Shown: positions 17,883-57,115, counted from the stretch's first letter. The stretch is DNA of 64,000 bases from an uncultured Methanosarcinales archaeon (GCA_964510025.1 CAZDZV010000006.1:11143-75142); one strand, 5' to 3'. The notes: generated by a model from the sequence alone, not told the origin. A program made the numbers and translations.

Positions 17883-18718
17883 AGGTTGATTTCGATTTCC
17901 ATACCCATACTGACGTATCTGATGGTAGCTTAAGCCCTTCTGCCCTGGTCAGAAAAGCCAAGCGTGAAGGATTGAGGCTTATTGCGATAACAGACCACGA
18001 CAATATTGACGGTATACCTGAAGCAGTTGAGACTGGCAGGAAGATAGGTATTGATGTCATTCCGGGTGTGGAGATTAGCATTGACTTCAAGGCTACGATG
18101 CATATGTGCGGCTACTTCATCGACATAACTGATACCCAGCTCAGAAAAGCCCTGAAGTTTGTGCAGGATGCTCGCAGAGACAGAAATCCTCAGATTATCG
18201 ATAAGCTGAACAAGCTGGGCATGGATGTGAGGATTGAAGATGTTAAGAAACATGCAGGCAGGGATCAGATTGGAAGGCCCCATTTCGCAAAAGCGCTTAT
18301 CGAGAAAGGCTATGTTACGACAAAAGAAGAGGCCTTTGAAAAATATCTGGCAAAAGGCAGGCCGGCGTATGTAGACAAGAAGCGGCTTGACAGGGAGAAA
18401 GCAGTGAAGACCATCCTGGATGCAGGAGGCACTGCTGTCCTTGCGCATCCCAAGCAGCTTCGCCTGGACACTGCCAAAGAATACAGGAAGCTTTTTATGG
18501 AGATGAAGGAATTGGGCGTCTCTGGCATCGAAGCATACTCAAGCTGCCATACAGAAGATGAAAATAAGATGTTCAGGGAGATCGCTGATGAGCTGGGGAT
18601 GCTTGTCACCGGAGGCAGCGACTTCCATGGTGACACAAAACAAGATGTTGAACTAGGGGAATTCGGAGAGAACATTGATATTGACGTGGATAAGTTGGTT
18701 GAAAAGATGAAAGCATGA
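17879..18718 (+). CDS. PHP-family metal-dependent phosphoesterase (COG0613/TrpH-like)
   Basis: DFHTHTDVSDGS, AITDHD, GVEIS, LAHP motifs. ATGA overlap with the parB-like gene. Confidence 0.75.
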   Translation: MKVDFDFHTHTDVSDGSLSPSALVRKAKREGLRLIAITDHDNIDGIPEAVETGRKIGIDVIPGVEISIDFKATMHMCGYFIDITDTQLRKALKFVQDARRDRNPQIIDKLNKLGMDVRIEDVKKHAGRDQIGRPHFAKALIEKGYVTTKEEAFEKYLAKGRPAYVDKKRLDREKAVKTILDAGGTAVLAHPKQLRLDTAKEYRKLFMEMKELGVSGIEAYSSCHTEDENKMFREIADELGMLVTGGSDFHGDTKQDVELGEFGENIDIDVDKLVEKMKA

Positions 18719-20118
18719 GAGAAAAGCACATTTTCTGGCTTCTGCTTGTTTTTATTGTATATATGCATTTTGAAGACCTGGTGAAGCTCTATTTCAATTA
18801 TCATCCGATAGCGCATGGGTTCAAGTATGTTTTTGCCCTGGTATTCTTCCTTATATGGATTTTTCAGATTGGGGTAGTTAATACAAGATTTACGATACCT
18901 CTGGCTGTTTATCTGTTCTTTGTATTTGTCCAGTTCATAAATCCCCTCATGTTTGGAAAACAGGGCTTTATGTTGTCGGTTATTGGGTCGCTTTACTATA
19001 TAGCATTTGTGCCCTTGTTTTTTGTTGCCCATCGGGTATTTGATATAGAAAGGCTGAAAAAGACACTATGGATTGTCTTAGGCTTGGCTTGCTTTTCAGC
19101 TCTGGCAGCGCATATACAGTTCTTCCTTGGCTGGCAGAGATACCTCCAGCTGATGCCTTACAGCCATGAGATGTTCCTGAGGACCAAAAACTTTGTTTTC
19201 CATGGGCCTTTGGCTTTCAGCGTAAAGCCCCCAAGATACTGGTATGTTGCAGGCATAATGATCAGCAGCATTTTTGTTCTTTCTGAAAAGAAAAAGCTCA
19301 TAGCTGGCTTTCTGGGCCTTAACTGCTTGCTTGCTTTGGCCCTTTCAGGAATGAGGTTTGCCATGGCAGCTTCTTTTTTTTCCCTGATGATAGTCTTTTT
19401 CTTTGGACTAAGAAAGCAGAAAATATCTAATGCGATGAGGATAGCTGCAGTTTTGATACTGCTATTGACTATGTTTTTCCCTTTCTCGATGCTTCCCAAG
19501 CAAAGGTACATTCAGTTCATCACAAATCCTGTTGGTACATATATCCAGCAAAGAGGGAGGATGTGGCCACAGTTTTTCAGGGATATCGTCAAATATCCGT
19601 TAGGCACAGGATTGAGGGCCGGAGGGCATATTGACACCGAAAGGTTTAAGGTACCTGATGTATCGATGCGTGCCGGAGAAAACTACATAGCAGTCATCGC
19701 TTCCCAGATTGGCATATTTGGGCTGATTGCAGTGCTTTGGCTATATGTTGCGATAGCCCGAAAATTCTATGAAAACTTGTCCCTGAGGAGATTCAGATAT
19801 TTTGTCAGTCTGGGCATATTTGCCCTGCTATTTTCCTTTATGTTTGAGGTGGGTTTTTTCCCGGGAGAAGGCCCGAGCTACTGGATGTTCTGGCTGTTTT
19901 CAGGTGTCTTGTTCAAAATAGATAAGATGGAGGTACAAAAGATGCGAAAAACATATTCTTTGGCTAGCGAAAGTTTTTTTCTCAGGGGAATTCCTGATGT
20001 AAGGGTATGGCTCTTACAAAGCAAATTTGTCAAGCTGGGCCATAGGATATTCTGTTGTTTCAGGAATTCAAGGTTTTTTAGGTTTATTGAGAATATAGTC
20101 AAGTATGCGGAAATTTAA
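18715..20118 (+). CDS. Polytopic membrane protein, O-antigen ligase/Wzy-like (first gene of the glycan locus)
   Basis: About 10-12 predicted TM helices. ENYIAVIASQIGIFGLIAVLWLY resembles the Wzy_C core. Confidence 0.55.
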   Translation: MREKHIFWLLLVFIVYMHFEDLVKLYFNYHPIAHGFKYVFALVFFLIWIFQIGVVNTRFTIPLAVYLFFVFVQFINPLMFGKQGFMLSVIGSLYYIAFVPLFFVAHRVFDIERLKKTLWIVLGLACFSALAAHIQFFLGWQRYLQLMPYSHEMFLRTKNFVFHGPLAFSVKPPRYWYVAGIMISSIFVLSEKKKLIAGFLGLNCLLALALSGMRFAMAASFFSLMIVFFFGLRKQKISNAMRIAAVLILLLTMFFPFSMLPKQRYIQFITNPVGTYIQQRGRMWPQFFRDIVKYPLGTGLRAGGHIDTERFKVPDVSMRAGENYIAVIASQIGIFGLIAVLWLYVAIARKFYENLSLRRFRYFVSLGIFALLFSFMFEVGFFPGEGPSYWMFWLFSGVLFKIDKMEVQKMRKTYSLASESFFLRGIPDVRVWLLQSKFVKLGHRIFCCFRNSRFFRFIENIVKYAEI

Positions 20119-20893
20119 GGTCCTGGTTGCCATACTATCGCTGATTGTCGTCGTGGAACTAGTTTTGAGGTTATTCGGTTTTGGGAACCCTGTGCTCTAC
20201 GTTGAGGACCCGGATATAGGGTATCTGCCGAAAGCCAATCAAAGCATATACAGGTTTGGCAACAAAATATACTACAATGAATATCATCAAAGGTCTGATG
20301 ACCTGATGGCAGATCCAGACTATAGGGTATTTATGTTGGGTGATTCTGTCCTGAATGGTGGGACCTTAATAGACCAGAAAGATACAATCAGTGAGATATT
20401 AGAGAGGCAGTTAAATTCATTCTGTAATTGTAAAGGCGAGGTCCTAAGCGCATCTGCCAAAGGATGGGCAATAGAAAATGAGTATGAATACCTTAGAAAA
20501 TTCGGCACTTTTAATTCAAGTCTGATTATATGGGTGATAAATGAAGGTGATTTGTACCAAAAAAAGAATTTGGGCCGAGACTATCCGTCAAAACCTTACT
20601 TATTTGCTTTGTCTAAGGTATTTTTCCACTATCTGCGCCCGAGAAAATCCGCTTCTGGATCCCAGAATCCGCCGTTGTCCTTTCTTTCACTTTTGAAGAC
20701 TGACTCTCAAGTCGTTATAGTGCAAATACCTAAAAGAAGATCTACTTCAGGAAAGCTGGATATTCAATTAGAAAGAATTGATATCAGGCTTAGTGACAAT
20801 GCGTACAGGGATGATATCCACCTTAACAGGCAAGGCAATTATATTGCCAGTGAAATTATATTTTCCACTATTAAGGACAAAATATTAGACTGA
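20105..20893 (+). CDS. Membrane-anchored SGNH/GDSL hydrolase (putative glycan O-acetyl esterase/transferase)
   Basis: N-terminal TM. FMLGDSV (GDS block I), GxND region, DDIHLNRQG (DxxH block V). Confidence 0.6.
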   Translation: MRKFKVLVAILSLIVVVELVLRLFGFGNPVLYVEDPDIGYLPKANQSIYRFGNKIYYNEYHQRSDDLMADPDYRVFMLGDSVLNGGTLIDQKDTISEILERQLNSFCNCKGEVLSASAKGWAIENEYEYLRKFGTFNSSLIIWVINEGDLYQKKNLGRDYPSKPYLFALSKVFFHYLRPRKSASGSQNPPLSFLSLLKTDSQVVIVQIPKRRSTSGKLDIQLERIDIRLSDNAYRDDIHLNRQGNYIASEIIFSTIKDKILD

Positions 20894-20937
20894 AAATCAG
20901 CCGATTATTGAAAAGTCTCTGCTAAAATAATCATAAG

Positions 20938-21762
20938 ATGGAAGGATATTTGATAATAGCAGCTTACCAACAAAAGTTCCTTGAGATGGCCTCGAATCTA
21001 GCACTATCGATAAGGTTGAAGGATGACAGGCCAATAGCAATCGCAGTTAAGGACATTAAGGTTGATCCAGGCTCTAAAAGAATATTTGATCACATAATTG
21101 AGATACCGCATGAAAAGTCCAGAAAGGCGCATCTTAATAAGTTTATTATGAATGAACTTACCCCTTTCAGCAAAACGATGTACATTGATGCAGATTGCCT
21201 AATGGTCAAGGATGATATTTCTATTATTTGGAAAAAGCTAAAGAAATACAATTTCACAGTACAGGGGACCAAGGTGGAATATGGAAACCATAGAGGGATT
21301 GACGTTTTAAATGTCAAAGACAAACTTGGCATTCCTTATTTTGTAAAGTCAAATAGCGGATTAATTTATTTTGATAAAACTAAAAAAACAAAGAAAGTTT
21401 TTGAGAAATTGAATTGGTATTTGTTGAAAGATGAAAAGATACTGCGTGTTCCATTTCGCGGTCAAATCAAAGATGAGACTTATATCGGTGCTGTAATGGG
21501 GCACCTTGAGCTTGAACCATTTCCAGTTGTATTTAGACATTATTTTCAGCTCAAGCAATGGATGCAGTGTGTATCAGCTAGGTATTGTGCAGAGATCGAT
21601 GTTTTGAAAGGAAAATCCAAGATAACCTTCCGAGATGGCCATACTGATAGCCCAACGGTCGCGCACTTTGTCGGCTTTGTAGGCAAAAGGCAGCTTTATT
21701 TAAGGGAATCGAATAGGCTAAGAAAAGAATTTGGATTTTCTAAAAATAAGATTTTATGCTGA
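20938..21762 (+). CDS. GT-A fold nucleotide-diphospho-sugar transferase-like protein (DxD)
   Basis: YIDADCLMV DxD motif; resembles the 26088 and 26912 proteins. Confidence 0.45.
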   Translation: MEGYLIIAAYQQKFLEMASNLALSIRLKDDRPIAIAVKDIKVDPGSKRIFDHIIEIPHEKSRKAHLNKFIMNELTPFSKTMYIDADCLMVKDDISIIWKKLKKYNFTVQGTKVEYGNHRGIDVLNVKDKLGIPYFVKSNSGLIYFDKTKKTKKVFEKLNWYLLKDEKILRVPFRGQIKDETYIGAVMGHLELEPFPVVFRHYFQLKQWMQCVSARYCAEIDVLKGKSKITFRDGHTDSPTVAHFVGFVGKRQLYLRESNRLRKEFGFSKNKILC

Positions 21763-22667
21763 ATAGACCAAGTTGTACATTATCATTCTTCGTGGCAAGA
21801 ACAGATGTCTCATTTATGATGCATACCATACCCCATCTGGTGCGGATGGCTAATTATCCATTTAGTAAAAAAATTATTTTTGTAGATTCAAAGGATCTGA
21901 AAAGCGACAAGAAAAACCGGGCTAATATAGGGACACTAGAAGAAGTCAGAGATAAATGCAAGGAGCTGCAAGATCAGAATATAATTGATGAGATTATTGA
22001 CTTTGATTATACACATCCTATCGTAGCAGAGACATACAGAAAATATTTTGAAAAAAATTTGAGACATACCCATAATTGGAAAGGTTACCCGGTATATGGA
22101 AATCTTTTTGCAATTGAAAACTGCGATTCAGATTATTTATTGCATTTTGATAGCGACATACTAATGTATCAAGACAACAATTTTAGCTGGGTTGATGCGA
22201 GTATGAAGATAATGGGGGGTAATTGTAACATAGTTACGACCAGGCCCCTCGCAGGCCCATCTGAAAAATCTTCGCCAGGATATCACTTAAGCCAGACATT
22301 TGGAAGTCGATGCTATTTGATACATACTAAAAGACTTAAACAGATATTACCCCTGCCCCTTTTGGTAAGCTTCAGACGCACAAGAATACTGGATTCCTTT
22401 CCCCAGCGAATCAAAAAAAAGTTATATTTGAGTTTCGAAAAGGGCGAGCTGGATTCATGGGAATTGATGGTTGGAGCAGCGCTGAGGAAAAACAGGAAAT
22501 TTCGGGCAATACTATCTTCAGATAAGGCGTGGACTTTGCACCCAAAGGATCATGGTGAGCAATTTATTAGGTTGCTTCCCGAAATTATCCAGAGGATTGA
22601 GCATAAAGATTTTCCTTTGGAACAGGAAAAGAAATACGATCTTGATTTGAATTTATGGACTCGATAA
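21756..22667 (+). CDS. Hypothetical protein, possible GT-A-like (HFDSDILMY)
   Basis: ORF in the coupled array (7-nt overlap). Confidence 0.35.
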   Translation: MLNRPSCTLSFFVARTDVSFMMHTIPHLVRMANYPFSKKIIFVDSKDLKSDKKNRANIGTLEEVRDKCKELQDQNIIDEIIDFDYTHPIVAETYRKYFEKNLRHTHNWKGYPVYGNLFAIENCDSDYLLHFDSDILMYQDNNFSWVDASMKIMGGNCNIVTTRPLAGPSEKSSPGYHLSQTFGSRCYLIHTKRLKQILPLPLLVSFRRTRILDSFPQRIKKKLYLSFEKGELDSWELMVGAALRKNRKFRAILSSDKAWTLHPKDHGEQFIRLLPEIIQRIEHKDFPLEQEKKYDLDLNLWTR

Positions 22668-23683
22668 GAAAGAAACCAAAAATATTTTTCTATTTGCCTG
22701 AGGAATATCTTCCGCAAGGCCAGATACCAGAGGATTATACAGAATTCTGGGACTACTGTGTAAAGAACTGGAATGGGTACTATGCGGGAATTCTAGTCTG
22801 GACCCTTAAGACGTACCTATTGCTTAAAGATTATGTTTCATGCAAATTAGTTACAAACATTCCTGAAAAAGGGATAATCATTGCTCATAGAAAATCCTTA
22901 CCTGCAAAACCGAAGCCGAAGCAGCTCTTTGTTTGCATCAAGGCAGATAAGTCAGTACACCCATATTCGCAGATCCATCTGGTGCAAAATTCTTGTGACT
23001 GTCTCTTCAAAAGGTCACCCGGACTGTGGCAGACATACTATGTCCCCCGTTGGCCCCAGGATAAATTGAAGCCAAGGTCAAAATCGAGAGGCACAAGACT
23101 AGAGAATGTTGGTTATTATGGGGTAAGACGGGAGCTGGCCAAAGAGTTACAGTCTAAAAAATTTGAGAGACTTATGCAATCGAACGGTTTTAAGTGGCAT
23201 ATTTTTTCCAATCCGAAGAAGTGGGTTGATTACAGCAAAACAGATGCTATTGTAGCGGTTAGGAGTTTTAAAAAACAGGGATTCAATAATAAGCTAGCGT
23301 CTAAACTATATAATGCGTGGCGAGCAGGTGTACCTGTATTATTGGGGCCAGAGACAGCTTATCAAAATGAGAAAAAAAGCCGGTTTGATTATATGGAAGT
23401 AAATTCAGCAAATGAAATAATCTCAGCACTTAAAAGCTTAAGAAAGAATCATAGGTTATACAAGCAAATGGTGAATAATGGAATTATCCGATCCAAAGAG
23501 GTCAGTCAGAATAAGATTATCGGTCTTTGGAAATCTTTTTTGGTGAATGTTGCAGTTCCTGCATATCGAAGGCACTGTAAAAATCGTATTTCCACTAACA
23601 TGTTCCTGCTGCAGAGATATTTTTATAACGTATATTATCAACTTCATTTTAAATTTAGGTCGAAAATTTTGTATGGCATATAA
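22655..23683 (+). CDS. Hypothetical protein, possible glycosyltransferase-like Rossmann C-terminal half
   Basis: ORF in the coupled array (13-nt overlap upstream, 11-nt downstream). Confidence 0.35.
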   Translation: MDSIRKKPKIFFYLPEEYLPQGQIPEDYTEFWDYCVKNWNGYYAGILVWTLKTYLLLKDYVSCKLVTNIPEKGIIIAHRKSLPAKPKPKQLFVCIKADKSVHPYSQIHLVQNSCDCLFKRSPGLWQTYYVPRWPQDKLKPRSKSRGTRLENVGYYGVRRELAKELQSKKFERLMQSNGFKWHIFSNPKKWVDYSKTDAIVAVRSFKKQGFNNKLASKLYNAWRAGVPVLLGPETAYQNEKKSRFDYMEVNSANEIISALKSLRKNHRLYKQMVNNGIIRSKEVSQNKIIGLWKSFLVNVAVPAYRRHCKNRISTNMFLLQRYFYNVYYQLHFKFRSKILYGI

Positions 23684-24194
23684 TAAAATATTTGGGATAG
23701 GTCTTTCAAAAACTGGGACTACATCTTTAGCTAGGGCCTTGGAGATTTTGGGATTTAGGACTGTTCACTCCCCTAGGAAGTCCTATTTATATGAGAAAAG
23801 AAGAGGCCTTCCATATTTCTCTACATTAGAAGAATATAGGGGTTTTACAGATTTTCCTTGTTGGGCAATATACAAAGAAGTGGATATTTTGTATCCGGGC
23901 AGCAAATTTATCCTAACTGTTCGAAATCCTCATGATTGGTACGTCAGCAGAAAGAAGCATTATAAAGCAAGACTGAAACAGGATATCAAACTTGATTGGG
24001 ATATGAGCAAAAAGTCAATGGATAAACTTCTGAAACATAACCAAGAAGTGATGGGGTATTTTAAGAGAAGAAAAAAAGATTTACTAGTGCTTGATATTGC
24101 AAAGGGAGAAGGTTGGGACAAGCTGTGCCGGTTCCTGCAGGTCCAAGAACCTTCCTTAACATTCCCCCACCTTAACAAGTCAGAATGTCTGTGA
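23673..24194 (+). CDS. Sulfotransferase 1 (PAPS-dependent type)
   Basis: 5'-PSB GLSKTGTTSL and 3'-PB TVRNPHDWYVS. Start placed at MAYNK (ATG 23673); the ORF-track start at 23547 is probably upstream read-through. Confidence 0.65.
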   Translation: MAYNKIFGIGLSKTGTTSLARALEILGFRTVHSPRKSYLYEKRRGLPYFSTLEEYRGFTDFPCWAIYKEVDILYPGSKFILTVRNPHDWYVSRKKHYKARLKQDIKLDWDMSKKSMDKLLKHNQEVMGYFKRRKKDLLVLDIAKGEGWDKLCRFLQVQEPSLTFPHLNKSECL

Positions 24195-28598: not shown

Positions 28599-28612
28599 TC
28601 TGCAAGAAGAAA

Positions 28613-30303: not shown

Positions 30304-30309
30304 CATAAT

Positions 30310-38053: not shown

Positions 38054-38170
38054 GGATTCTTTACATTGTCTAAATGAAGGATATAATAGCTCAAGCTACA
38101 ACAAGATGAAACTAAGTACGATACAAATTAAAGAAAGGATTGTAGGTTTGTTCAGTTTAGTAGGAACAAG

Positions 38171-38935: not shown

Positions 38936-40059
38936 AAGTCCTGGAAGTGATATCATCACTGAATCCTAGAACAGGCGGCACTGCTGAATCCCTAAAGCAA
39001 CTGGAAAAGATACTGTCCAGCAAGCATACTATAGAAATACTCTGTCTTGATAAACCAAAATCTCCATGGCTAAGGGATTTCAAAAGCAAGATATATGCCT
39101 TGGGTCCAGCAATCACCAGATATGCATTTTCTAAAAGGCTTCTAGGTTGGCTAAGAAAGAATGCAGTCAGCTATGATTGCATTATAGTCAATGGCATATG
39201 GCAATATGTGGGTTTTGCTGTATGGCTCATCCTAAAAAATTCCGAAACACCGTATTTTATCTATGCACATGGAATGCTGGATCCTTGGTTTAAAAAAAAC
39301 TATCTTATCAAGCATTTAAAGAAGTCAATTTATTGGCCTATCCAATACAGAATACTAAAAGACGCAGAAGCGGTTGTTTTTAACTGCAAGGAAGAAGCCC
39401 GGTTAGCCTCAAAATCATTCTGGCCAAATAGATGGAATTCAAAAATAATTAGTCATGGCATCTTTAAGCCGCCTGTCAACAAATCTCATCTTGTTGCCGG
39501 CTTTTTGGACAGATACAAAATACCTAGAAACCAGAATTTAATCCTCTTTTTGGGACGCATACACGAAAAAAAAGGCATTGATAACCTGGTGAAATCATTC
39601 GCAGAACTTAGCTCCGATTACCGCTTAATCATTGCCGGTCCTGAGTCAGCCTACGGCAATAGGATGAAAAGGCTTGCAAAAAAACTCGGTATCAGCCACA
39701 AAATTACATGGACAGGGATGCTCGAAAACGACCTAAAATGGGGTGCTTTCTATGCATCAGATGCATTTATTCTTCCTTCTCATCAAGAAAACTTTGGGAT
39801 TGCAGTAGTAGAAGCTTTGGCATGTGGATTGCCTGTCTTGATTTCAGATAAGGTGAATATATGGAAGAAGATTTATGATTTCAGTGCGGGTTTTGTTGAG
39901 AATGATAGCCTTGAAGGAACTTCAAAATTGTTGAAAAGATGGCATCTAGCTAGTGAAGAGAAAAAGAAAAAGATGGCTAAGTCAGCGAAAATTTGTTTTG
40001 AGTCTAACTTTGATATAAACAAGAATATCAGCCAGTTGATTAGGCTTGTCAGTAAATGA
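38932..40059 (+). CDS. Glycosyltransferase family 4
   Basis: ENFGIAVVEALACGLPVLISD. Confidence 0.75.
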   Translation: MKVLEVISSLNPRTGGTAESLKQLEKILSSKHTIEILCLDKPKSPWLRDFKSKIYALGPAITRYAFSKRLLGWLRKNAVSYDCIIVNGIWQYVGFAVWLILKNSETPYFIYAHGMLDPWFKKNYLIKHLKKSIYWPIQYRILKDAEAVVFNCKEEARLASKSFWPNRWNSKIISHGIFKPPVNKSHLVAGFLDRYKIPRNQNLILFLGRIHEKKGIDNLVKSFAELSSDYRLIIAGPESAYGNRMKRLAKKLGISHKITWTGMLENDLKWGAFYASDAFILPSHQENFGIAVVEALACGLPVLISDKVNIWKKIYDFSAGFVENDSLEGTSKLLKRWHLASEEKKKKMAKSAKICFESNFDINKNISQLIRLVSK

Positions 40060-41021
40060 ATGTGAAAAAAGACATCTCAATAGTCATCCCGACATATAAC
40101 GGCTCAAGGTACCTGCCCGAAGTGTTAAACGCTTTGAGGAATCAGGAAGGCCTAAAGGAGATATCCTGGGAGGTTATTGTCGTAGATAATAACAGCACAG
40201 ACACTACGCCGAAGATCGTCGAAGAATTTCAGAAAAAATGGGATATGGACAATAAATTAAGGTATCTTGTTGAAAAAAGACAAGGCGCAGCGTATGCGAG
40301 GGAAACTGGTGTAAGAAATGCAAAAAGCAAGATTATTGGGTTTCTTGATGATGATAATATTCCTGAGAAGAACTGGATCCTGGAAGCTTATAGATTTGGG
40401 TCTGAACATCATGAAGCAGGAGCATGGGGGAGTAGGATCAAAGCAAGATATGAAAAAATGCCGCCTGAAAATTTCGATAGCATAAAGATGTATTTTGCGA
40501 TTATGGAAAAAGGGGAAAATGCTTATTGTTCTGAAGCTAAAAAATTTGTCTTGCCCCCTAGTGCTGGTCTTGTGGTAAGAAAAGATATATGGCCCGCATC
40601 ACCTTTATTGCTAACTGGAAGAACAAAGGAAACATGGCTAGCTGGTGAAGATATAGAGCTATTAGTTAGAATACAGAATAAAGGCTATGGAATATGGTAC
40701 AATCCAAGGATGGAAATTACACATATAATACCTGCTGCAAGGCTTGAGCCAGAATATGCCATTAACTTGATGAAAGGGATTGGATTATGCAAATACATAA
40801 CCAGGATGTTGAGACAATATGTATTGGCTAGACCTGTGGCCATAGTGGGATATTGTATTTCAGATTTTTTAAAGATGATGAAATTTATGCTCAGGTTCCG
40901 AGCCAAAATAATAAAAGATGCTCTGCTGAAGGCTGAATTTTTTTTATATCTGTACAGTTTTTATAGCCCTTTTTATTTTTTATTTAGATACCCAAAAAAG
41001 TTTTTTCTGATAGGAAAATGA
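40056..41021 (+). CDS. Glycosyltransferase family 2
   Basis: ISIVIPTYNGSRYL...WEVIVVDNNSTDTT, DDD. Confidence 0.8.
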   Translation: MNVKKDISIVIPTYNGSRYLPEVLNALRNQEGLKEISWEVIVVDNNSTDTTPKIVEEFQKKWDMDNKLRYLVEKRQGAAYARETGVRNAKSKIIGFLDDDNIPEKNWILEAYRFGSEHHEAGAWGSRIKARYEKMPPENFDSIKMYFAIMEKGENAYCSEAKKFVLPPSAGLVVRKDIWPASPLLLTGRTKETWLAGEDIELLVRIQNKGYGIWYNPRMEITHIIPAARLEPEYAINLMKGIGLCKYITRMLRQYVLARPVAIVGYCISDFLKMMKFMLRFRAKIIKDALLKAEFFLYLYSFYSPFYFLFRYPKKFFLIGK

Positions 41022-41833
41022 CAAAAATTAAAGATGCTGTTGATAAAGCATATATCATTTGTCATAGCTCATCCACTGAAGAATTATCCAAGAGTTTAAC
41101 AAAGAACAATTTAGATGTAGAAGAATTAAGACAAAAACCTAAAAAAAGTTGGAATAAATATTCAAACATATACAAATGCTTGCTTAATCACGAAAGGGCA
41201 TGGAAAAAAGCACTGAACAATGAATTTACATTGATAGTTGAAGAGGATTTTGTACCTGTTAGTAATTTTGGAGACTTTTCTTTACCATTTGATCCAAAAA
41301 AGGATTTTGGAATCTGCTGGATTTATTACTGCGGACCAAGGATTTATAGTGCTTCAGACACAGGCTATATAGAAGGTGGTGCAACTTCCCTAGTTGCATA
41401 TATAATAAACAAAAAAAGCGCAGCGCTTCTAATCGAATTTGCCAAAAAAATGAAAAAAACTATGAAGGGAAAGTATTATCCATTTGATTCAGATATAGAC
41501 GGTTATTTTATAAAGAAAGGATTGAAAAACTATATCGCTTTCAGAAACTATGGCGAGCATGGCGGGCTTCCGAATCCTGAACACAGGCAGAATAAAACAG
41601 GAAACCAAGGTATACACAGGGCTGATGTGTTGGCCGGAAAACTTGATTTTATGCCCCTTTATTCCAAGCACAATATCATTATATATATCGTTGTAAGGAT
41701 AAAGGCAAGAATCAAGGGACTAGTACGTTTATTCAGCGGAAGATATTTAAGGCCAAAGATCTTCTGCTCATCAAGCTTTCCGTTGAGGCTTTTGAAGTGT
41801 GCGATTAAAAGGCATTTGACATGGAACCTATGA
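41018..41833 (+). CDS. Hypothetical protein, possibly GT25-like
   Basis: KAYIICHSSSTEELSKSLTK N-terminus loosely GT25-like; low certainty. Confidence 0.3.
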   Translation: MTKIKDAVDKAYIICHSSSTEELSKSLTKNNLDVEELRQKPKKSWNKYSNIYKCLLNHERAWKKALNNEFTLIVEEDFVPVSNFGDFSLPFDPKKDFGICWIYYCGPRIYSASDTGYIEGGATSLVAYIINKKSAALLIEFAKKMKKTMKGKYYPFDSDIDGYFIKKGLKNYIAFRNYGEHGGLPNPEHRQNKTGNQGIHRADVLAGKLDFMPLYSKHNIIIYIVVRIKARIKGLVRLFSGRYLRPKIFCSSSFPLRLLKCAIKRHLTWNL

Positions 41834-42384
41834 AAGACTTGCTTAAAGGGACAGTTGCATCTGCCGGCCCAAGTTTTAGCTTGAGCAACAGGTTTAGAAG
41901 AGCTGTCTGGAATCTGGTATATCATGTTATGTTCAGGTTATCTCCGGTGTTTTTTCATGAGTGGCGCTCTATCCTGCTAAGGCTGTTCGGGGCAGAAATC
42001 GGCAAAGGCTGCCACATATACCCAAGAGCAGCAATATGGGCCCCGTGGAACCTTAAAACAGGTGATTTTGTAGGCATAGCCGATGATGTGAAGCTTTATA
42101 ACCAGGCAGAGATAGTCATAGGTGACCTCACAGTAATCTCACAAGGGTCCCATATATGTACCGGCACACATGATTATCAGAAAAAGGCGTTTCCGGTCAT
42201 CATCAAGCCAGTTACCATAGGAAAAAGGGCCTGGATATGCGCTGATGCATTCATACATCCGGGAGTCAGCATCGGCGAAGGGGCAGTTGTCGGAGCTAGA
42301 TCTGTTGTGACTAGAGATATTAAGAAATGGACAGTCTGCGCTGGAAATCCGTGCACTGAGATTAGGAAAAGAAATGTTATATAA
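41821..42384 (+). CDS. Hexapeptide-repeat (LbH) acetyltransferase, WcaF/WbbJ-like
   Basis: Repeated [LIV]G..xx[LIV] hexapeptides; IGKRAWICADAFIHPGVSIGEGAVVGARSVV. Confidence 0.75.
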   Translation: MEPMKDLLKGTVASAGPSFSLSNRFRRAVWNLVYHVMFRLSPVFFHEWRSILLRLFGAEIGKGCHIYPRAAIWAPWNLKTGDFVGIADDVKLYNQAEIVIGDLTVISQGSHICTGTHDYQKKAFPVIIKPVTIGKRAWICADAFIHPGVSIGEGAVVGARSVVTRDIKKWTVCAGNPCTEIRKRNVI

Positions 42385-43222
42385 TCTTACTATAGTCATT
42401 CTCACATTCAATTCAGCAAGAACAATCAACGAAGTTGTTTCTTCATGCAGGCATTTGTCTGAAAAAATACTGGTTGTGGACTCATACAGCAAGGATGACA
42501 CTGTTAAGATTGCAAGGTCTCTCGGATGCAAAGTCCTGCAGCATACGTTCAAGGATTACTCGACGCAAAGGAACTGGGCGCAGCAGAAAGTAAGAACTCA
42601 ATGGGTTCTGCATCTCGATAGTGATGAGATAATCTCCAAGAAACTGGCTGACAGCATCCAGGCAGCTTTCTCAAAAAAATCAGATAATGACGGCTATCTT
42701 ATGAAAAGGCTTACTTATTTTATGGGCAAGCCAATCAGATTTGGCCACATGAACCCAAACTGGCACCTGAGGCTTTTTAAGGTCAAGACCGGATATTGTG
42801 AGGACAGGTTGTATGACCAGCATTTTATCGCAAAAGGCAATCTCGCAAGATTGGACGGCTACATATTGGATGTTCCCAAAAAATCTGTAGAAGAATGGAT
42901 AGATAATCATAATCGATGGTCGACAGCAGAAGCAGAGGAGCTCTTGTCTGGAAATTCTTTATGCAAGAGCCTGCCTGGGAAACTTAACAAGGATCCCAGA
43001 ATAAGGAAAAGGCTGATAAAGAATAATGTGTATTACAGGCTACCGCCGCTTGTCAGGCCTTTTATCTTCTTTGGTTACAGCTACATCGTGCGGCTGGGCT
43101 TTTTAGATGGACGGGCGGGATTTATATACAGCATACTCCAGTCTTTCTGGTTCCGGTTCCTGGTGGATGTGAAAATTCTAGAAAGGAAAATCTTTATAAA
43201 ATACGCTAGATTCAGGAGATAA
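42374..43222 (+). CDS. Glycosyltransferase family 2
   Basis: LTIVILTFNSARTI...KILVVDSYSKDDT, DSDE. Confidence 0.75.
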   Translation: MLYNLTIVILTFNSARTINEVVSSCRHLSEKILVVDSYSKDDTVKIARSLGCKVLQHTFKDYSTQRNWAQQKVRTQWVLHLDSDEIISKKLADSIQAAFSKKSDNDGYLMKRLTYFMGKPIRFGHMNPNWHLRLFKVKTGYCEDRLYDQHFIAKGNLARLDGYILDVPKKSVEEWIDNHNRWSTAEAEELLSGNSLCKSLPGKLNKDPRIRKRLIKNNVYYRLPPLVRPFIFFGYSYIVRLGFLDGRAGFIYSILQSFWFRFLVDVKILERKIFIKYARFRR

Positions 43223-43223
43223 G

Positions 43224-44444
43224 ATGAAGTTAGTGGATGATAAAGGGAAAGTCTTGGGAAGGATAAACATATTTGATCTGATGATAGTCATACTGGTTTT
43301 TTTGCTTCTGTTGCAGGGGACTATCCATATAGCTAGGAACTGGACACTTTCCGAGCCTGAACAGGTTCTTGTTAAGATAAAAGGTGAGCTCTGCAATGTT
43401 GATTCCAGCCTGAAAACAAGAGATTGTGGCTCTTCATTGCCAGAATATTTTTACGACAATATCTACATCGGACAGGCTATGAGAAGCAAGGGCGAAATTA
43501 TAGCCAAGGTTGATAAGATAGAAGCCATAGGTGAAACAGAAGCCAAAAAGATTGTTCTCACGCTTGAGGTCAGGGCACAGCTTCAGGACAATGAGCTTAC
43601 CTTTCTGGGCCAAGAGCTGAAGATCAACAGAAGATTTGTATTCGCTACGCCGACGATTAATTTTGGGGTGAATGTCATATATCTTGACAGCAATATCATT
43701 GAGCAGGCAGCCGAGACCATAACCGATGCAACTGCAAACCGGCAAACCAGGATATATGATGGCTGGGATTCTGTCATAGGGGAGTTGTGCACTTTGGATG
43801 AGGCAGATCACGCAAAAGAATGTGGAATAGATATTCCGGACTGGTTTGTCAATCGTATCGAAAATCTGGGGACTATTGAAGATAAGAATGCGATTATCAA
43901 GGTTCAGGAGATAAGGCAGATGATGGTAGACCAGATGACAACTGTCATCATCCTTAACTTAACCACCTATGACAATGAAGCCAAAGAAAAGATGTTTCAG
44001 GGGGTACCTTTGAAGATAAACAATAGGCTGGTTGTAAAAAGTCCCCAAATTAATTTTGGGGTAAAGATATTGAATATCGGGACTGGGCTTCCTGAAGAAT
44101 CCAGGCTTCACGAAAAAACAATAATACTGAAAATAGAAAATCTGGAGCCGGAAATATTCAACAGTATACAGGAAGGCATGACAGAGAAAAACAACAACAA
44201 TGAAGTTATAGCTGAGATAGTTGGCAAGACAGTCCAGCCCCACATTTTGCTGTTGACTACAGAAGATGGCCAGCTGCTGACAGAAGAGCATCCGATAAAC
44301 AAGGATATCACCCTGGAGACCCTTATAAAAGCATCGAAATCCAGGGATTACTATTATAACGGGCAGCTCGTTAAGATCGGAAATCCCCTCACAGTAAAGA
44401 CCGATATTATGGATTTAAATGGAGAGATAATAGCGATATCTTGA
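43224..44444 (+). CDS. N-terminally membrane-anchored protein with internal duplication (NRRFVFATPTINFGVNVIYLD / NNRLVVKSPQINFGVKILNIG)
   Basis: TM IFDLMIVILVFLLLLQG; two related ~20-aa segments about 130 aa apart. Confidence 0.5.
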   Translation: MKLVDDKGKVLGRINIFDLMIVILVFLLLLQGTIHIARNWTLSEPEQVLVKIKGELCNVDSSLKTRDCGSSLPEYFYDNIYIGQAMRSKGEIIAKVDKIEAIGETEAKKIVLTLEVRAQLQDNELTFLGQELKINRRFVFATPTINFGVNVIYLDSNIIEQAAETITDATANRQTRIYDGWDSVIGELCTLDEADHAKECGIDIPDWFVNRIENLGTIEDKNAIIKVQEIRQMMVDQMTTVIILNLTTYDNEAKEKMFQGVPLKINNRLVVKSPQINFGVKILNIGTGLPEESRLHEKTIILKIENLEPEIFNSIQEGMTEKNNNNEVIAEIVGKTVQPHILLLTTEDGQLLTEEHPINKDITLETLIKASKSRDYYYNGQLVKIGNPLTVKTDIMDLNGEIIAIS

Positions 44445-45595
44445 TTGAAGTGAATATTCTTACAAGGGATTTCTTCCCAGACTACAGTGCGGTGGCTAAA
44501 AAGATGACCGGGCTAGCAGAGGATCTTACAGCTGCCGGCATAGACGTTCAGGTATACACAGCTAATCCGCAGTATTACTGCAGAGAAAAGCCTGAAAAGC
44601 GCAGAAATATCAGAAGGGTTTTATGCACCTCGTTCGATAAGGATAATCTCTTATTGAGGGCCATTAATGAGGTTAGCTTTGGAATATCAATATTTGCTAT
44701 CTTGCTTTTTTCGAAAAAAAAGATGAATATAATCCCCTCTCTTCCATTTTCGCTTCAGCTCTCTGCTCTCCTTTTAAGGAAAATAAGAAACCAGGATTAC
44801 ATCATAATAAACTATGAGATTATGCCCGAACTTATGTGTTCCTCCGGTCTAATGTCATATGATGGCCCCTTCTTCCGGATGCTCAACAAGATAGCCAAGA
44901 AAGTGCTTGATAACGCCAGGTGCATTATTACTTTAACTGCATCTATGAGCAAAAAGCTGGAAAGCAAGGTCAGAAAAAAGATAGTGACTATCCCGAATTG
45001 GACTGACACAGATGTCTATTACCCCATCAAAAGAAAAGAAAACGAATTCTTGAGAAGAAACAAGCTTTCAGATAGCTTCGTTGTATCATACTCAGGTAAT
45101 TTCGGCAGGTACATGGATTTTGATACTGTACTTAAGGCTGCGGAGCTTTTGCCCCAGATAAGATTTCTTTTTATAGGTAATGGGGCGCAAAAGGGCAGAA
45201 TAACCAAGGCAGACAATATTTTTTATCATGATTATCTGCCAAACTCAAGGATCAATGAATCTCTGAATTCCGGAAATATAGCATTGGTGCTTACAAACCA
45301 GAAAGATGACGATTATGTTATGCCGAGCAAGATCCTTGACCTGATGGCTGCTGGAAGGCCAATAGTTGCTGTATCAAGAAATTCGGAGATTAAAAAGATA
45401 ATTGCCAGGTCAAGGAACGGGTTTGTTGTAAATCCTGGAGAACCAGATAGCCTAAAAAGAGCTATTCTGGCCCTGAAGAACGACAAAAAATTGCAGAAAG
45501 AAATGGGCAAAAACTCAAGGGATTATGCTGCTAGACATTTTTCCAGAAAGAAGATTACCGGGCAGTATGTTGAACTGCTGAAGAAAAATTTATAA
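44441..45595 (+). CDS. Glycosyltransferase family 4 (WbuB-like)
   Basis: GT-B C-terminal domain, ...LMAAGRPIVAV... Confidence 0.65.
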   Translation: MIEVNILTRDFFPDYSAVAKKMTGLAEDLTAAGIDVQVYTANPQYYCREKPEKRRNIRRVLCTSFDKDNLLLRAINEVSFGISIFAILLFSKKKMNIIPSLPFSLQLSALLLRKIRNQDYIIINYEIMPELMCSSGLMSYDGPFFRMLNKIAKKVLDNARCIITLTASMSKKLESKVRKKIVTIPNWTDTDVYYPIKRKENEFLRRNKLSDSFVVSYSGNFGRYMDFDTVLKAAELLPQIRFLFIGNGAQKGRITKADNIFYHDYLPNSRINESLNSGNIALVLTNQKDDDYVMPSKILDLMAAGRPIVAVSRNSEIKKIIARSRNGFVVNPGEPDSLKRAILALKNDKKLQKEMGKNSRDYAARHFSRKKITGQYVELLKKNL

Positions 45596-45617
45596 ACTAC
45601 CTGCCTAGGCGAAGATT

Positions 45618-46229
45618 ATGGGCATTCTGAAAAGGGTTTTGGATTTTGGGATAGCTGCCATAGCTTTAGCTGTTTCTCTGCCGGTCTTCATCACAATTTC
45701 GGCCCTTATAGTGGCAGATTCAGGCTTCCCTGTTTTTTTTAGTCAGCGGAGGGTAGGCCATAGGCAGAAAAAATTTACCCTGTATAAATTTCGCACAATG
45801 GTTAAAGATGCCGAAAAGATCAAGCACAGGTACAAGAAGCTTGATTATACTGACGGGCCTGTTTTTAAGATTAGAAAAGATCCAAGATACACAAAAATAG
45901 GGCTTTTCCTTGCAAAGACGAGCTTGGATGAGCTACCTCAGCTTTTCAACGTCCTGAAAGGTGACATGTTCATTGTTGGGTTTAGGCCGCCTACACCTGA
46001 AGAGGTAAAAGAGTATAAAGAATGGCAGCTTGAGCGTTTTAAGGGCTATCCTGGGATTACATCTCTTTGGGCCATATCGGGGATGCACAATATAAGGTTT
46101 GATGACTGGATAAAGATGGATATAAAATACAGCAAAAAAGCCAATTTTTTTCTGGATATGAAAATAGTTGCAAAAACAGTCACAAAAATCATAGAAAACA
46201 TATATGCTTCACTTAAACACGGTCTGTAG
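45618..46229 (+). CDS. Bacterial-type polyprenyl-phosphate sugar phosphotransferase (PglC/WbaP C-terminal-domain family)
   Basis: Single N-terminal hydrophobic helix; KFRTM, DELPQLFNVLKGDMFIVGFRPP, GYPGITSLWAISG. Confidence 0.8.
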   Translation: MGILKRVLDFGIAAIALAVSLPVFITISALIVADSGFPVFFSQRRVGHRQKKFTLYKFRTMVKDAEKIKHRYKKLDYTDGPVFKIRKDPRYTKIGLFLAKTSLDELPQLFNVLKGDMFIVGFRPPTPEEVKEYKEWQLERFKGYPGITSLWAISGMHNIRFDDWIKMDIKYSKKANFFLDMKIVAKTVTKIIENIYASLKHGL

Positions 46230-50950: not shown

Positions 50951-51271
50951 ATGTTTTGTCCAAAATGCGGTTCAATATTGGTGCCAAAAAAAGAAGGTAA
51001 AAAGACAGTAGTTAAGTGCTCCTGCGGCTATAAGGCAAAAAACCAGGAATCTACCATAATCCGTGAGGAGGTGGTGGATAATACTAAAGAAGTAGAGCTT
51101 ATTGATGATGATAAAAGCCTTGAGACCCTGCCTAAGATGAAGGCAGAATGCCCAAAATGCCAGAACAATGAGGCTTATTTCTGGGAAGTGCAGACCAGAG
51201 CTTCAGATGAGCCCGCAACCAAATTTCTTAAGTGCACGAAATGCAAGCATGTGTGGCGGGACTATAATTAA
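50951..51271 (+). CDS. tfs: Transcription factor S (TFS / RpoM-like)
   Basis: N-terminal CPKCG...CSCG Zn ribbon; C-terminal CPKCQNNEAYFWEVQTRASDEPATKFLKCTKCKHVWRD (TFIIS-type ribbon with the acidic tip). Start at MFCPKCG. Confidence 0.85.
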   Translation: MFCPKCGSILVPKKEGKKTVVKCSCGYKAKNQESTIIREEVVDNTKEVELIDDDKSLETLPKMKAECPKCQNNEAYFWEVQTRASDEPATKFLKCTKCKHVWRDYN

Positions 51272-52966: not shown

Positions 52967-52975
52967 TTCTTCACC

Positions 52976-57113: not shown

Positions 57114-57115
57114 AA

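Follow-up and report, generated by a model that had tools for sequence, protein, structure and literature searches.

Two glycan sulfotransferases, Agl30 and Agl31, were characterised in 2025 in the N-glycosylation cluster of Halobacterium salinarum (PMC11980604); both are alkaline-phosphatase/sulfatase-fold proteins, and PAPS is nowhere mentioned in that paper. A 2024 review noted uncharacterised sulfotransferase-domain matches (Pfam PF03567) in Woesearchaeota and Pacearchaeota (PMC11625862). Classical PAPS-using sulfotransferases are predicted in archaea, and no archaeal test of one was found in the literature searched. In cyanobacteria, the synechan (xss) cluster encodes 2 sulfotransferases, 8 glycosyltransferases (GTs), and Wzx/Wzy (PMC8205485). 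By gene content it is the closest characterised analogue of the locus described here, which lies in a 64-kb window (the whole stretch of DNA analysed) and combines many GTs with three PAPS-type sulfotransferases. The initial annotation considered such enzymes uncharacterised in archaeal glycosylation loci; in the literature searched, this holds for the PAPS type but not for sulfotransferases of archaeal glycan clusters as such, given Agl30 and Agl31 (PMC11980604).

The cluster (18715-46229, 27.5 kb) is an unbroken plus-strand run, as first described, but of 29 rather than 28 open reading frames (ORFs), preceded by three further co-directional genes starting at 16287, 17070, and 17879. Junctions were measured from whichever start codon lies closest to the stop of the gene before. 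Overlaps of 4 nt (ATGA/GTGA/TTGA) at 12 or more cluster junctions and of 7 to 14 nt at about 10 predominate, much as had been claimed, and only four gaps exceed 10 nt (44, 14, 117, and 22 nt). Pfam domain content and gene packing agree with a single-strand glycan-assembly locus. The genes are as follows, with bit scores to PF00535 for GT2 and to PF00534 for GT4.

17879-18718, +, PHP-family (COG0613) phosphoesterase, candidate 3',5'-nucleoside bisphosphate (pAp) phosphatase (PDB 2yb1, NCBIfam NF041577)
18715-20118, +, Wzy_C polytopic membrane protein, O-antigen ligase/polymerase-like (Pfam Wzy_C, 32.3 bits; cutoff, 31.7)
20105-20893, +, SGNH-like protein with N-terminal membrane anchor (motif level, GDS and DxxH; one N-terminal TM segment)
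20938-21762, +, putative GT-A, GT8-like (Glyco_transf_8, E = 0.022, sub-threshold; DxD-like DADC)
21756-22667, +, protein with a DxD-like motif (DSD), no family match in HMM searches
22655-23683, +, conserved glycan-locus protein, possibly a divergent GT-B (weak profile match to PglH)
23673-24194, +, ST1, compact (173 aa) Sulfotransfer_4-family sulfotransferase (PF17784, 114.9 bits)
24185-25051, +, GT2 (96.6 bits)
25051-26091, +, GT4 (60.3 bits)
26088-26915, +, Npun_R2821/R2822-family protein, GT8-like (NCBIfam NF045582, 263.8 bits; cutoff, 250; GT8, E = 0.056)
26912-27667, +, protein with a DxD-like motif, no family match in HMM searches
27669-28598, +, divergent GT2 (28 bits; cutoff, 23.3)
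28613-29476, +, GT2 (124.5 bits)
29473-30303, +, ST2, Sulfotransfer_1/3-family sulfotransferase (PF00685, 56.4 bits; PF13469, 55 bits)
30310-31218, +, GT2 (120.8 bits)
31215-32231, +, GT4 (53.3 bits)
32221-33129, +, GT2 (110 bits)
33126-34034, +, GT2 (66.8 bits)
34022-35155, +, GT4 (136.8 bits)
35152-36963, +, half-size ABC exporter, MsbA/HepA-like (ABC_membrane and ABC_tran)
36956-38053, +, GT4 (68.2 bits; PF13439, 52.3 bits)
38171-38935, +, ST3, NodH/Stf0-like sulfotransferase (PF13469, 29.1 bits; cutoff, 27)
38932-40059, +, GT4 (109.6 bits)
40056-41021, +, GT2 (106.5 bits)
41018-41833, +, GT25-like at sub-threshold level (PF01755, E = 0.087)
41821-42384, +, WcaF-family polysaccharide O-acetyltransferase, hexapeptide repeat (Hexapep, 47 bits; NCBIfam NF007797, 195.4 bits; cutoff, 192)
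42374-43222, +, GT2 (59.1 bits)
43224-44444, +, membrane-anchored protein with two DUF4330 stretches (PF14221, 75.1 bits; one N-terminal TM segment)
44441-45595, +, GT4 (57.4 bits)
45618-46229, +, small monotopic phosphoglycosyl transferase, PglC/WbaP catalytic-domain type, predicted initiating enzyme (Bac_transf, 196.8 bits)

Homology searches confirmed ST1, ST2, and ST3 as PAPS-type sulfotransferases of three different subfamilies. ST1 matches a Schistosoma sulfotransferase and SgdX2 in PDB (E = 4e-14), while ST2, whose gene begins at an ATGA overlap, matches 3rnl (E = 7.6e-49) and heparan sulfate NST and 3-OST (E = 6e-13 to 6e-7). The ST3 gene follows the 117-nt gap, the sole long gap of the cluster. 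The family profile of ST3, for which 1,251 relatives were found, matches NodH (9vki, E = 2.6e-10) and Stf0 (1tex, E = 3e-4) and shows R46, G48, R128, and S137 to be conserved. The top 19 Foldseek matches of its AF2 model (pLDDT 92.5) are sulfotransferases only (TM 0.41 to 0.50), followed by guanylate kinases at TM ~0.3. Both PAPS-binding motifs are present and conserved in each protein, as originally quoted (5'-PSB, GLSKTGTTSL, AAKAGTTSL, and QARTGSTLL; 3'-PB, RNPHDWYVS, RNPIDRAYS, and RKNQLRQSLS), and profile and structure comparisons place all three within the PAPS-type sulfotransferase fold rather than among generic P-loop kinases. None of them has a TM segment and all are predicted to be soluble; the Wzy-like, SGNH-like, and DUF4330 proteins have TM segments.

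By Pfam, the cluster encodes 8 GT2 (7 strong, with 27669-28598 weak) and 6 GT4 proteins, in line with the minima of 7 and 6 given earlier. The several GT8/GT-A DxD proteins listed there reach sub-threshold GT8 or GT25 scores only, with 26088-26915 passing the NF045582 cutoff. The acetyltransferase, the ABC exporter, the phosphoglycosyl transferase, and the Wzy-like protein were all recovered, the last as a marginal call because its score lies so close to the cutoff; it has about 10 to 11 hydrophobic segments and no match in PDB or NCBIfam. For the SGNH hydrolase, motifs and anchor stand, but HMM support does not, with no match even at E ≤ 10. The family profile of 22655-23683 gave only a weak match to the PglH C terminus (PDB 6eji, named WlaC protein; E = 0.054). 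This protein and ST1 are kept as a pair in a bacterial locus type (37% and 66% identity), and its 13 metagenome relatives adjoin GT2, GT4, or ABC genes without ST1. The top half-transporter in PDB for the ABC protein is MsbA (E = 6e-89), and its NCBIfam scores (HepA, 503.8; MsbA, 421.8; PglK, 245.8 bits) all lie below the equivalog cutoffs, so that we only infer a flippase or exporter for a lipid-linked glycan. The phosphoglycosyl transferase matches WbaP (E = 4e-32) and PglC (E = 8e-28) in PDB and has a hydrophobic helix at its N terminus. The DUF4330 protein is not mentioned in the literature searched and had no relatives in a metagenome search, and Pfam recognised no PCP/chain-length gene in the cluster.

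The earlier inventory overlooked the adjoining PHP-family gene, which shares a 4-nt ATGA overlap with the first cluster gene. The best PDB match of its product is 2yb1 (Cv1693, E = 1.4e-38), nearly full length (residues 4 to 255 of 279), with the metal ligands and the equivalents of the 5'-phosphate-binding arginines (Arg99, Arg102, and Arg134) conserved. Its top NCBIfam model is NF041577 (240.7 bits), although below the 3',5'-nucleoside bisphosphate phosphatase equivalog cutoff of 400, and the runner-up is RNase RNM (196.6 bits); the PHP family also takes in 5'-3' exoribonucleases (RNase AM/RNM) of the same fold. pAp is an inhibitory by-product of sulfation by sulfotransferases. It is hydrolysed by Cv1693 (PMC8268124). 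The PHP protein plausibly clears pAp from sulfation, a link drawn from gene adjacency; no PHP gene lies beside sulfotransferase homologues at the other loci examined.

Where does this locus come from? Both flanks are archaeal (aIF5B, Trm1, CTP-dependent riboflavin kinase, DUF460, and HerA/Mre11), in accordance with the claimed archaeal setting. In a word-limited scan, a single marker, aIF5B, shared 55 to 61% identity with Woesearchaeota/Nanoarchaeia metagenome-assembled genomes, which suggests an uncultured archaeal host with affinities to Woesearchaeota/DPANN. Mean GC is 38.4% for the cluster genes (GC3, 39.6%) and 42.3% for the remaining non-island genes (GC3, 46.7%; Mann-Whitney p = 2e-5), so the cluster is indeed more AT-rich; the shift is modest, with no sharp break at the cluster ends. 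The contigs that carry the nearest homologues of ST1 (58 to 66% identity, Omnitrophota) and ST2 (48 to 55%) also encode bacterial markers (a ribosomal-protein operon of bacterial type, Lnt, SmpB, and DbpA), named ST2 homologues are mostly cyanobacterial, and the nearest named homologue of ST3 is bacterial, which makes a bacterial origin likely. Judged by such comparisons, both the layout of the cluster and its nearest homologues are of a bacterial rather than a typically archaeal kind, and bacteria are the most likely source of the sulfation modules and probably of the entire design.

Taken together, the cluster is probably an operon of bacterial type by which an archaeon assembles a complex surface heteroglycan on a lipid carrier. 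From the domain assignments we infer the order and topology of a pathway. The PglC/WbaP-type transferase would load a sugar-1-phosphate onto polyprenyl (dolichyl) phosphate at the cytoplasmic face, and at least 14 GTs, with as many as 6 additional GT-like proteins, would extend the chain. Before the glycan leaves the cytoplasm, ST1 to ST3 may each sulfate a different position or sugar from PAPS, and the WcaF-type enzyme may O-acetylate it. The ABC half-transporter would then carry the lipid-linked product across the membrane, where the Wzy_C protein would either polymerise it or join it to an acceptor. The SGNH-like and DUF4330 proteins, both membrane-anchored, may work outside the cell, and the translationally coupled PHP-family phosphatase would remove pAp. 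At least 14 GTs are many for one repeat unit, and thus the locus may make two or more products or a long glycan without repeats. The marginal Wzy_C call and the scores of the ABC and PHP proteins below equivalog cutoffs also count against the proposed pathway.

The 64-kb window contains no PAPS-synthesis (sat/cysC/cysDN), nucleotide-sugar, or AglB/STT3 genes. The absence of nucleotide-sugar genes had been recognised, but the pathway cannot be called self-contained: other parts of the genome or a host must supply PAPS and nucleotide sugars, as well as any oligosaccharyltransferase. One survey found sulfate-to-PAPS genes in only 2 of 19 Woesearchaeota genomes (PMC5994134), an observation that, like the lack of PAPS genes in the window, counts against an assured supply of the sulfate donor.

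Could the locus instead build a lipid-linked oligosaccharide for protein glycosylation, sulfated on the lipid-linked glycan as in Halobacterium? N-linked transfer would rely on an AglB from outside the window, and in O-linked transfer the Wzy_C protein would serve as a PglL-like O-oligosaccharyltransferase; such enzymes belong to the Wzy_C family. The outline would match Campylobacter pgl (PglC-type phosphoglycosyl transferase, GT4s, ABC flippase, and transferase). In its favour are a monotopic initiating enzyme of PglC size, an ABC half-transporter in place of Wzx, and no recognised chain-length gene, and the GT number is easier to reconcile with a long glycan lacking repeats than with a repeat unit. 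However, we know of no characterised archaeal N-glycan pathway that uses a Bac_transf initiator, STT3/AglB is missing from the window, and the PglK score is far below those of HepA and MsbA. The WcaF-family acetyltransferase, HepA-like ABC protein, and Npun_R2821-family protein indicate exopolysaccharide loci instead. Protein glycosylation is common on archaeal surface proteins, and sulfated N-glycans are known (PMC11980604); we regard it as an unlikely but serious explanation for this locus.

Bacterial relatives of the sulfotransferases, PAPS genes absent from the window and rare in Woesearchaeota (PMC5994134), and the lower GC would also fit enzymes not used for glycan sulfation here, whether a recent bacterial cassette without PAPS supply in a reduced host or enzymes with non-glycan acceptors. 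This is improbable, since the 29 ORFs overlap tightly and none is broken or frameshifted, each of the three proteins retains its PAPS-binding residues, their genes are dispersed among GT genes rather than forming one insert, and a candidate pAp phosphatase gene is operon-coupled. Moreover, nearest homologues are just 35 to 66% identical, and therefore any transfer was not recent. The bacterial design and homologues, and a metagenome-derived source contig on which every protein forms a singleton cluster, might even suggest a bacterial polysaccharide locus chimerically joined into an archaeal contig. Such an artefact is highly improbable given archaeal genes on both flanks within one 81.7-kb contig, a first junction in the same 4-nt style as the internal ones, and the modest GC shift (38% versus 42%) without a sharp break at the ends.

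The preferred reading, a sulfated surface heteroglycan, combines features of several known systems. ST3 shares an R-x-G-S-T 5'-PSB variant and an R-x8-S 3'-PB motif with rhizobial NodH and mycobacterial Stf0, but its identity to them is low, and its gene belongs to a large GT operon rather than to a nod or sulfolipid locus, without linked nodPQ/cysDNC genes. The small monotopic initiating enzyme, several GT4s (cf. PglH), and an ABC half-transporter possibly flipping a lipid-linked oligosaccharide recall Campylobacter jejuni pgl, whereas PglB/STT3 and bacillosamine genes are absent from the window, PglK is a poorer match than HepA/MsbA, and sulfation and many GT2s are added. Like the H. salinarum cluster, this would be an archaeal glycosylation cluster with more than one dedicated glycan sulfotransferase, and Agl30 and Agl31 target distinct sugars of a lipid-linked glycan (PMC11980604), as proposed for ST1 to ST3. 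Yet those enzymes have the sulfatase fold, one is membrane-bound, and their cluster is anchored by aglB, whereas ST1 to ST3 are predicted soluble P-loop-type PAPS enzymes in a window without sulfatase-fold protein or aglB, and initiation would be by a bacterial-type enzyme. Compared with synechan xss of Synechocystis sp. PCC 6803, the host here is an archaeon, three sulfotransferases replace two, and at least 14 GTs replace 8; an ABC half-transporter stands in for Wzx, PCP/OPX and XssQRS regulators are lacking, and a WcaF-type acetyltransferase, a DUF4330 protein, and the adjacent PHP phosphatase are added. The likeness, one of gene content and not of XssA/XssE sequence, lies in a priming transferase, many GTs, a Wzy-type protein, and sulfotransferases of distinct subfamilies in one locus, with PAPS synthesis outside it, and extends to cyanobacterial best matches for parts of the archaeal cluster (HepA model, Npun_R2821 family, and named ST2 homologues).

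An uninterrupted series of 29 plus-strand ORFs at 18715-46229, by a mechanical ORF list, holds three PAPS-type sulfotransferase genes among genes of glycan assembly; the initial annotation had counted 28. When the start codon closest to the stop of the gene before is taken for each gene, at least 12 junctions show 4-nt overlaps (ATGA, GTGA, or TTGA), ~10 show overlaps of 7 to 14 nt, and only four gaps exceed 10 nt (44, 14, 117, and 22 nt), confirming the tight packing claimed earlier. Three starts are refined by this junction analysis, those of ST1 (23673), ST2 (29473), and a GT2 gene (32221). The AT-rich 117-nt stretch at 38054-38170, ahead of ST3, is the sole long intergenic gap in the cluster; an internal promoter could lie there, the array then comprising two transcription units. 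The three sulfotransferases and their motifs for PAPS binding are as follows.

23673-24194, plus strand: ST1, 173 aa; 5'-PSB GLSKTGTTSL, 3'-PB RNPHDWYVS
29473-30303, plus strand: ST2; 5'-PSB AAKAGTTSL, 3'-PB RNPIDRAYS
38171-38935, plus strand: ST3; 5'-PSB QARTGSTLL, 3'-PB RKNQLRQSLS

Each protein scores above a Pfam cutoff and carries both motifs (a 5'-PSB loop of the form [KR]-x-G-[ST]-[ST] and a 3'-PB of the form R ... S), which align with those of solved sulfotransferases, upholding the earlier assignment of all three as PAPS-type enzymes. ST1 matches Sulfotransfer_4 with 114.9 bits (cutoff, 22.8) and aligns with a Schistosoma sulfotransferase and SgdX2 in the PDB (E value of 4e-14). ST2 matches Sulfotransfer_1 (56.4 bits; cutoff, 22) and Sulfotransfer_3 (55 bits; cutoff, 27), with the Alicyclobacillus sulfotransferase 3rnl (E value of 7.6e-49) and heparan sulfate N- and 3-O-sulfotransferases (E values of 6e-13 to 6e-7) among its PDB matches. 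Judged by this similarity to solved enzymes, ST1 and ST2 are predicted to have the sulfotransferase fold. ST3 is marginal in Pfam (29.1 bits; cutoff, 27), where the match covers the N-terminal motif only, and a single-sequence search of the PDB with it gave no match. An exhaustive search found 1,251 relatives, and a family profile of 79 sequences matched the "LPS sulfotransferase NodH" 9vki (E value of 2.6e-10) and Stf0 1tex (E value of 3e-4). Of the PAPS-binding motif positions, G48 and R128 never vary across these 79 sequences, and R46 and S137 show conservation of at least 90%. In a Foldseek search of the PDB with the ST3 AlphaFold model (pLDDT, 92.5), the top 19 matches were all sulfotransferases (E values of 5e-6 to 1.4e-3; TM scores of 0.41 to 0.50), with guanylate kinases ranking after them (TM score of ~0.3). 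By profile and model, ST3 is thus placed in the sulfotransferase fold, and together with the family matches of ST1 and ST2 this sets aside the possibility, raised in the initial annotation, that the three are generic P-loop kinases. Hydrophobic segments are absent from all three proteins, and sulfation is accordingly expected at the site of PAPS synthesis, the cytoplasm, presumably on the nascent lipid-linked glycan.

Three co-directional genes lie directly upstream of the cluster.

16287, plus strand: HTH/DUF7343 protein
17070-17882, plus strand: ParB/Noc-like protein, its parB_part domain passing the cutoff
17879-18718, plus strand: PHP-domain protein, ATGA-coupled to the first cluster gene

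The PHP gene is a component overlooked in the initial annotation. The best PDB match of its product is the COG0613 protein 2yb1 (Cv1693; E value of 1.4e-38); the alignment shows conservation of the ligands of the trinuclear metal site and of the residues corresponding to Arg99, Arg102, and Arg134, the arginines that bind the 5'-phosphate. Its best NCBIfam match, "3',5'-nucleoside bisphosphate phosphatase," reaches 240.7 bits, under the equivalog cutoff of 400, followed by RNase RNM with 196.6 bits. Cv1693 hydrolyses pAp, a sulfotransferase inhibitor (PMC8268124), and RNase AM has an active site in common with the Cv1693-type enzyme (PMC9410882). From its adjacency and family resemblance, we tentatively consider 17879-18718 a candidate locus-linked pAp phosphatase, a minority prospect that would make functional sense at this cluster. 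This archaeal genome also has the ParB/Noc-like gene, which joins the PHP gene through an ATGA overlap, so a cotranscribed and possibly coacquired block may start at 17070 rather than at 18715.

Both flanks of the cluster are made up of archaeal gene types.

Upstream flank: aIF5B with EF-Tu domain 4, Trm1, RtcA, a DUF371 protein, and a PUA protein
Downstream flank: a CTP-dependent riboflavin kinase fused to an HTH domain, and a riboflavin-synthase-like DMRL paralogue
Downstream flank, other genes: a DUF460 protein, and Mre11 with HerA

In a word-limited scan of species-representative genomes, the relatives of aIF5B are 55 to 61% identical, with one partial match at 65%, and are labeled Woesearchaeota, Nanoarchaeia, or, in third-party assemblies, "Methanosarcinales." Thirteen of the 15 aIF5B loci found are archaeal; there only the immediate neighbors of aIF5B are in common with the window and no cluster genes occur, at 55 to 61% identity of the relatives. 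Most of the loci labeled "Methanosarcinales" belong to a clade 84 to 97% identical in aIF5B to loci labeled Nanoarchaeia or Woesearchaeota, so the public labels of this clade conflict, and "Methanosarcinales" is unreliable and was rejected as a taxonomic guide. The TPA MAGs named "uncultured Methanosarcinales archaeon" are loci L002 to L005, L007, L008, and L010. On this one marker, in a word-limited scan, the window looks like another deep branch of the DPANN radiation. The window proteins looked up were all singletons at 90% identity among ~15 billion proteins and lie on one NCBI contig of 81,699 bp. An exact-match look-up with aIF5B gave no hit, and the one contig recovered with ST3 was of 971 bp (Logan, SRR7048225). 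Scans of the window for tRNAs and Rfam families gave no match.

In the remainder of the cluster, Pfam identifies eight GT2 enzymes (seven strong; 27669-28598 weak), six GT4 enzymes, an ABC_membrane plus ABC_tran half-transporter, and a hexapeptide acetyltransferase, which passes the WcaF-family cutoff in NCBIfam (195.4 bits; cutoff, 192). The exporter scores 503.8 bits against HepA, 421.8 against MsbA, and 245.8 against PglK, all under the equivalog cutoffs, and its best half-transporter match in the PDB is MsbA (E value of 6e-89). The phosphoglycosyl transferase (PGT; 45618-46229) matches Bac_transf PF02397 with 196.8 bits, and WbaP (E value of 4e-32) and PglC (E value of 8e-28) in the PDB; with its Bac_transf domain, a hydrophobic segment at residues 14 to 32, and an "LDELPQL" motif, it fits the monotopic class, whose marks are a catalytic domain of this family, a re-entrant hydrophobic helix at the N terminus, and an Asp-Glu dyad. 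The Wzy-like protein is marginal for Wzy_C in Pfam (32.3 bits; cutoff, 31.7) and gave no match in the PDB or NCBIfam; the Wzy_C domain is common to polymerases, ligases, and O-OTases and does not discriminate among them. Among the cluster proteins there was no MOP/Polysacc_synt (Wzx flippase) match, the ABC half-transporter being present instead, and no Wzz/GNVR match for a polysaccharide co-polymerase (PCP/Wzz). Seven cluster proteins had no significant Pfam match. The SGNH hydrolase proposed earlier has zero HMM support; what speaks for it is the GDS and DxxH motifs, along with a membrane anchor at its N terminus. As for the proposed GT8/GT-A proteins, 26088-26915 passes the cutoff of the Npun_R2821/R2822 family in NCBIfam (263.8 bits; cutoff, 250), while the matches to GT8 (genes at 20938 and 26088) and GT25 (gene at 41018) are sub-threshold.

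All functional assignments in the cluster are predictions, the transfer of sulfate from PAPS to carbohydrate by ST1 to ST3 included. In the pathway that they would probably make up, the PGT would start the glycan on a lipid carrier and assembly would proceed in the cytoplasm; sulfation and acetylation would precede transport, the ABC exporter would then flip the modified glycan, and the Wzy_C protein would act last, polymerizing or ligating it. What kind of glycan would leave this pathway? The main rival to a polymer is a long oligosaccharide destined for N- or O-linked protein glycosylation, a reading favored by a PGT that resembles PglC, by the use of an ABC exporter, by the lack of a PCP, and by the very large number of glycosyltransferases. 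Set against these are best matches of the exopolysaccharide type and the absence of an OST from the window, and we regard protein glycosylation as somewhat unlikely, with appreciable weight all the same. An assembly chimera is very unlikely given the archaeal flanks on two sides of the cluster and the ATGA coupling at its 5' boundary.

Another question is the supply of the sulfate donor. Among ORFs of at least 120 aa across the whole 64 kb, ATP sulfurylase, APS kinase, CysQ, nucleotide-sugar enzymes, and STT3/AglB gave no match, and no cysNDC or sat-cysC genes occur in or near the cluster within the 64-kb window. The absence of nucleotide-sugar biosynthesis genes from the cluster agrees with the initial annotation; with genes for PAPS, nucleotide sugars, and the OST all missing from 64 kb, the locus is not the "self-contained" pathway that it had proposed. 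Sulfotransferase and PAPS-synthesis genes together are a hallmark of sulfated-polysaccharide clusters (PMC11641403). Only 2 of 19 Woesearchaeota genomes surveyed had the sulfate-to-PAPS genes (PMC5994134), making donor supply a real question for this locus, and inactive sulfation for want of PAPS is improbable in our estimation. In a bolder reading, a DPANN-type archaeon, related to Woesearchaeota and probably host-associated, builds a sulfated, O-acetylated heteroglycan coat from an operon of bacterial parts, with classical PAPS sulfotransferases and its own PHP-family pAp phosphatase; this combination is unlikely to hold. If it did, Archaea would have a first system of this kind, separate from the Agl30/Agl31 route with its sulfatase-fold enzymes, and in a genome without sat/cysC it would require PAPS from a partner cell.

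Cluster genes average 38.4% GC and 39.6% GC3, compared to 42.3% and 46.7% for other non-island genes (p = 2e-5), a modest shift in line with the AT richness noted previously. The nearest homologues of ST1 are 58 to 66% identical; one lies on an Omnitrophota chromosome, adjoining a bacterial ribosomal-protein operon and Lnt, and others adjoin TatAC, bacterial NusG, or MBOAT/GDSL genes. Those of ST2 are 48 to 55% identical and adjoin SmpB or DbpA, its named homologues being mostly cyanobacterial, and the nearest named homologue of ST3 is from Winogradskyella. Taken along with the best matches to HepA, Npun_R2821, and WcaF, these homologues suggest that the sulfation modules descend from bacteria, as the cluster design as a whole probably does. 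The nearest homologues of ST1 and ST2 (loci L017, L018, L021, L024, and L025) come from a common ENA assembly set, TANS21-1_SAMN12687858/59, which hints at a habitat gene pool in common with the window's organism.

Two cluster genes have unusual products. The protein of 22655-23683 has no match in Pfam, NCBIfam, or the PDB, its single-sequence AF2 model is unusable (pLDDT, 37.7), and a 13-sequence profile found at best PglH (PDB 6eji; E value of 0.054). Its pairing with ST1 recurs in L024 (808-2594) and L025, with 37% identity for this protein and 66% for ST1, on metagenome contigs of a type in which archaeal marker genes are absent. Thirteen other loci of the 22655 family are without ST1 and have GT2 (40056-like), GT4 (25051-like), and ABC (35152-like) genes beside it, ruling out a universal two-gene module; the family is one of recurrent glycan-locus proteins without a Pfam model. 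The other, 43224-44444, lies between GT2 and GT4 genes near the priming transferase; its product is anchored in the membrane and contains two DUF4330 stretches. No metagenome relatives were found by pattern scan and no mention of DUF4330 in the literature searched; speculatively, this protein might stand in place of the missing co-polymerase.

Other loci of the window lie outside the cluster. A low-GC island, whose genes have 27 to 43% GC (most 27 to 36%) compared to ~42% elsewhere, resembles a mobile defence element that has become integrated.

51268-59381, island genes: a DpnII-type restriction endonuclease, a Dam-like D12 methyltransferase, and an AAA_15/OLD-like ATPase
51268-59381, remaining island genes: an N4/N6 methyltransferase and two tyrosine-recombinase genes

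On the minus strand, 59724-61688 encodes a 654-aa polytopic membrane protein of PF10131 (PTPS_related), adjoining Mre11 and HerA; we take this family to resemble GT-C-type glycosyltransferases, and the protein could be relevant to glycan transfer. The protein of 228-2774 (848 aa) has Laminin_G_3 and MopE-type metal-binding repeats; it is probably secreted or at the surface and is a possible glycosylation target.

Archaea have been known to bear sulfated surface glycans since the 1970s, and among their glycan sulfotransferases activity has been demonstrated only for Agl30 and Agl31 (2025), of sulfatase-like fold. With three intact PAPS-type sulfotransferases of the classical kind, each from another subfamily and all set in an archaeal locus clearly of glycan assembly, the cluster provides directly expressible candidates with which to ask for the first time whether Archaea, too, sulfate glycans by the canonical PAPS route. 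It also suggests that sulfation may be linked to a pAp phosphatase of the PHP family, which can be tested. A bacterial-style glycan operon of ~27.5 kb in a lineage usually called genome-reduced also bears on how such cells build surfaces for host contact, and its enzymes could serve for making sulfated oligosaccharides.

Agl30 and Agl31 of Halobacterium salinarum, characterized sulfotransferases in an archaeal glycosylation cluster, were identified as alkaline-phosphatase/sulfatase-like, the donor being unstated and PAPS nowhere mentioned (PMC11980604). Unlike that Agl N-glycosylation system, the window has no AglB and no sulfatase-fold sulfotransferase, sulfatase/alkaline-phosphatase-fold proteins of the Agl30/Agl31 type giving no match among its ORFs of at least 120 aa. 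The earlier statement that PAPS-type sulfotransferases in an archaeal glycosylation locus are uncharacterized still holds in the literature searched. A 2024 review lists uncharacterized sulfotransferase-domain matches to PF03567 in Woesearchaeota and Pacearchaeota (PMC11625862), a different family from those of ST1, ST2, and ST3. Bacterial precedent includes a Vibrio cluster for a sulfated capsule, in which three genes for sulfotransferases occur along with cysNDC (PMC11641403). Among characterized systems, the xss cluster for synechan in Synechocystis is the closest; it has two sulfotransferases, which belong to distinct subfamilies, as well as eight glycosyltransferases, a priming glycosyltransferase, and Wzx/Wzy/PCP (PMC8205485). 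In contrast to xss, the present cluster has an ABC half-transporter in the place of Wzx, no PCP/OPX, three sulfotransferases, at least 14 glycosyltransferases, a linked PHP gene, and an archaeon as its host. Overall, it is a sulfotransferase-bearing polysaccharide/glycan locus that is unusual mainly for its host.
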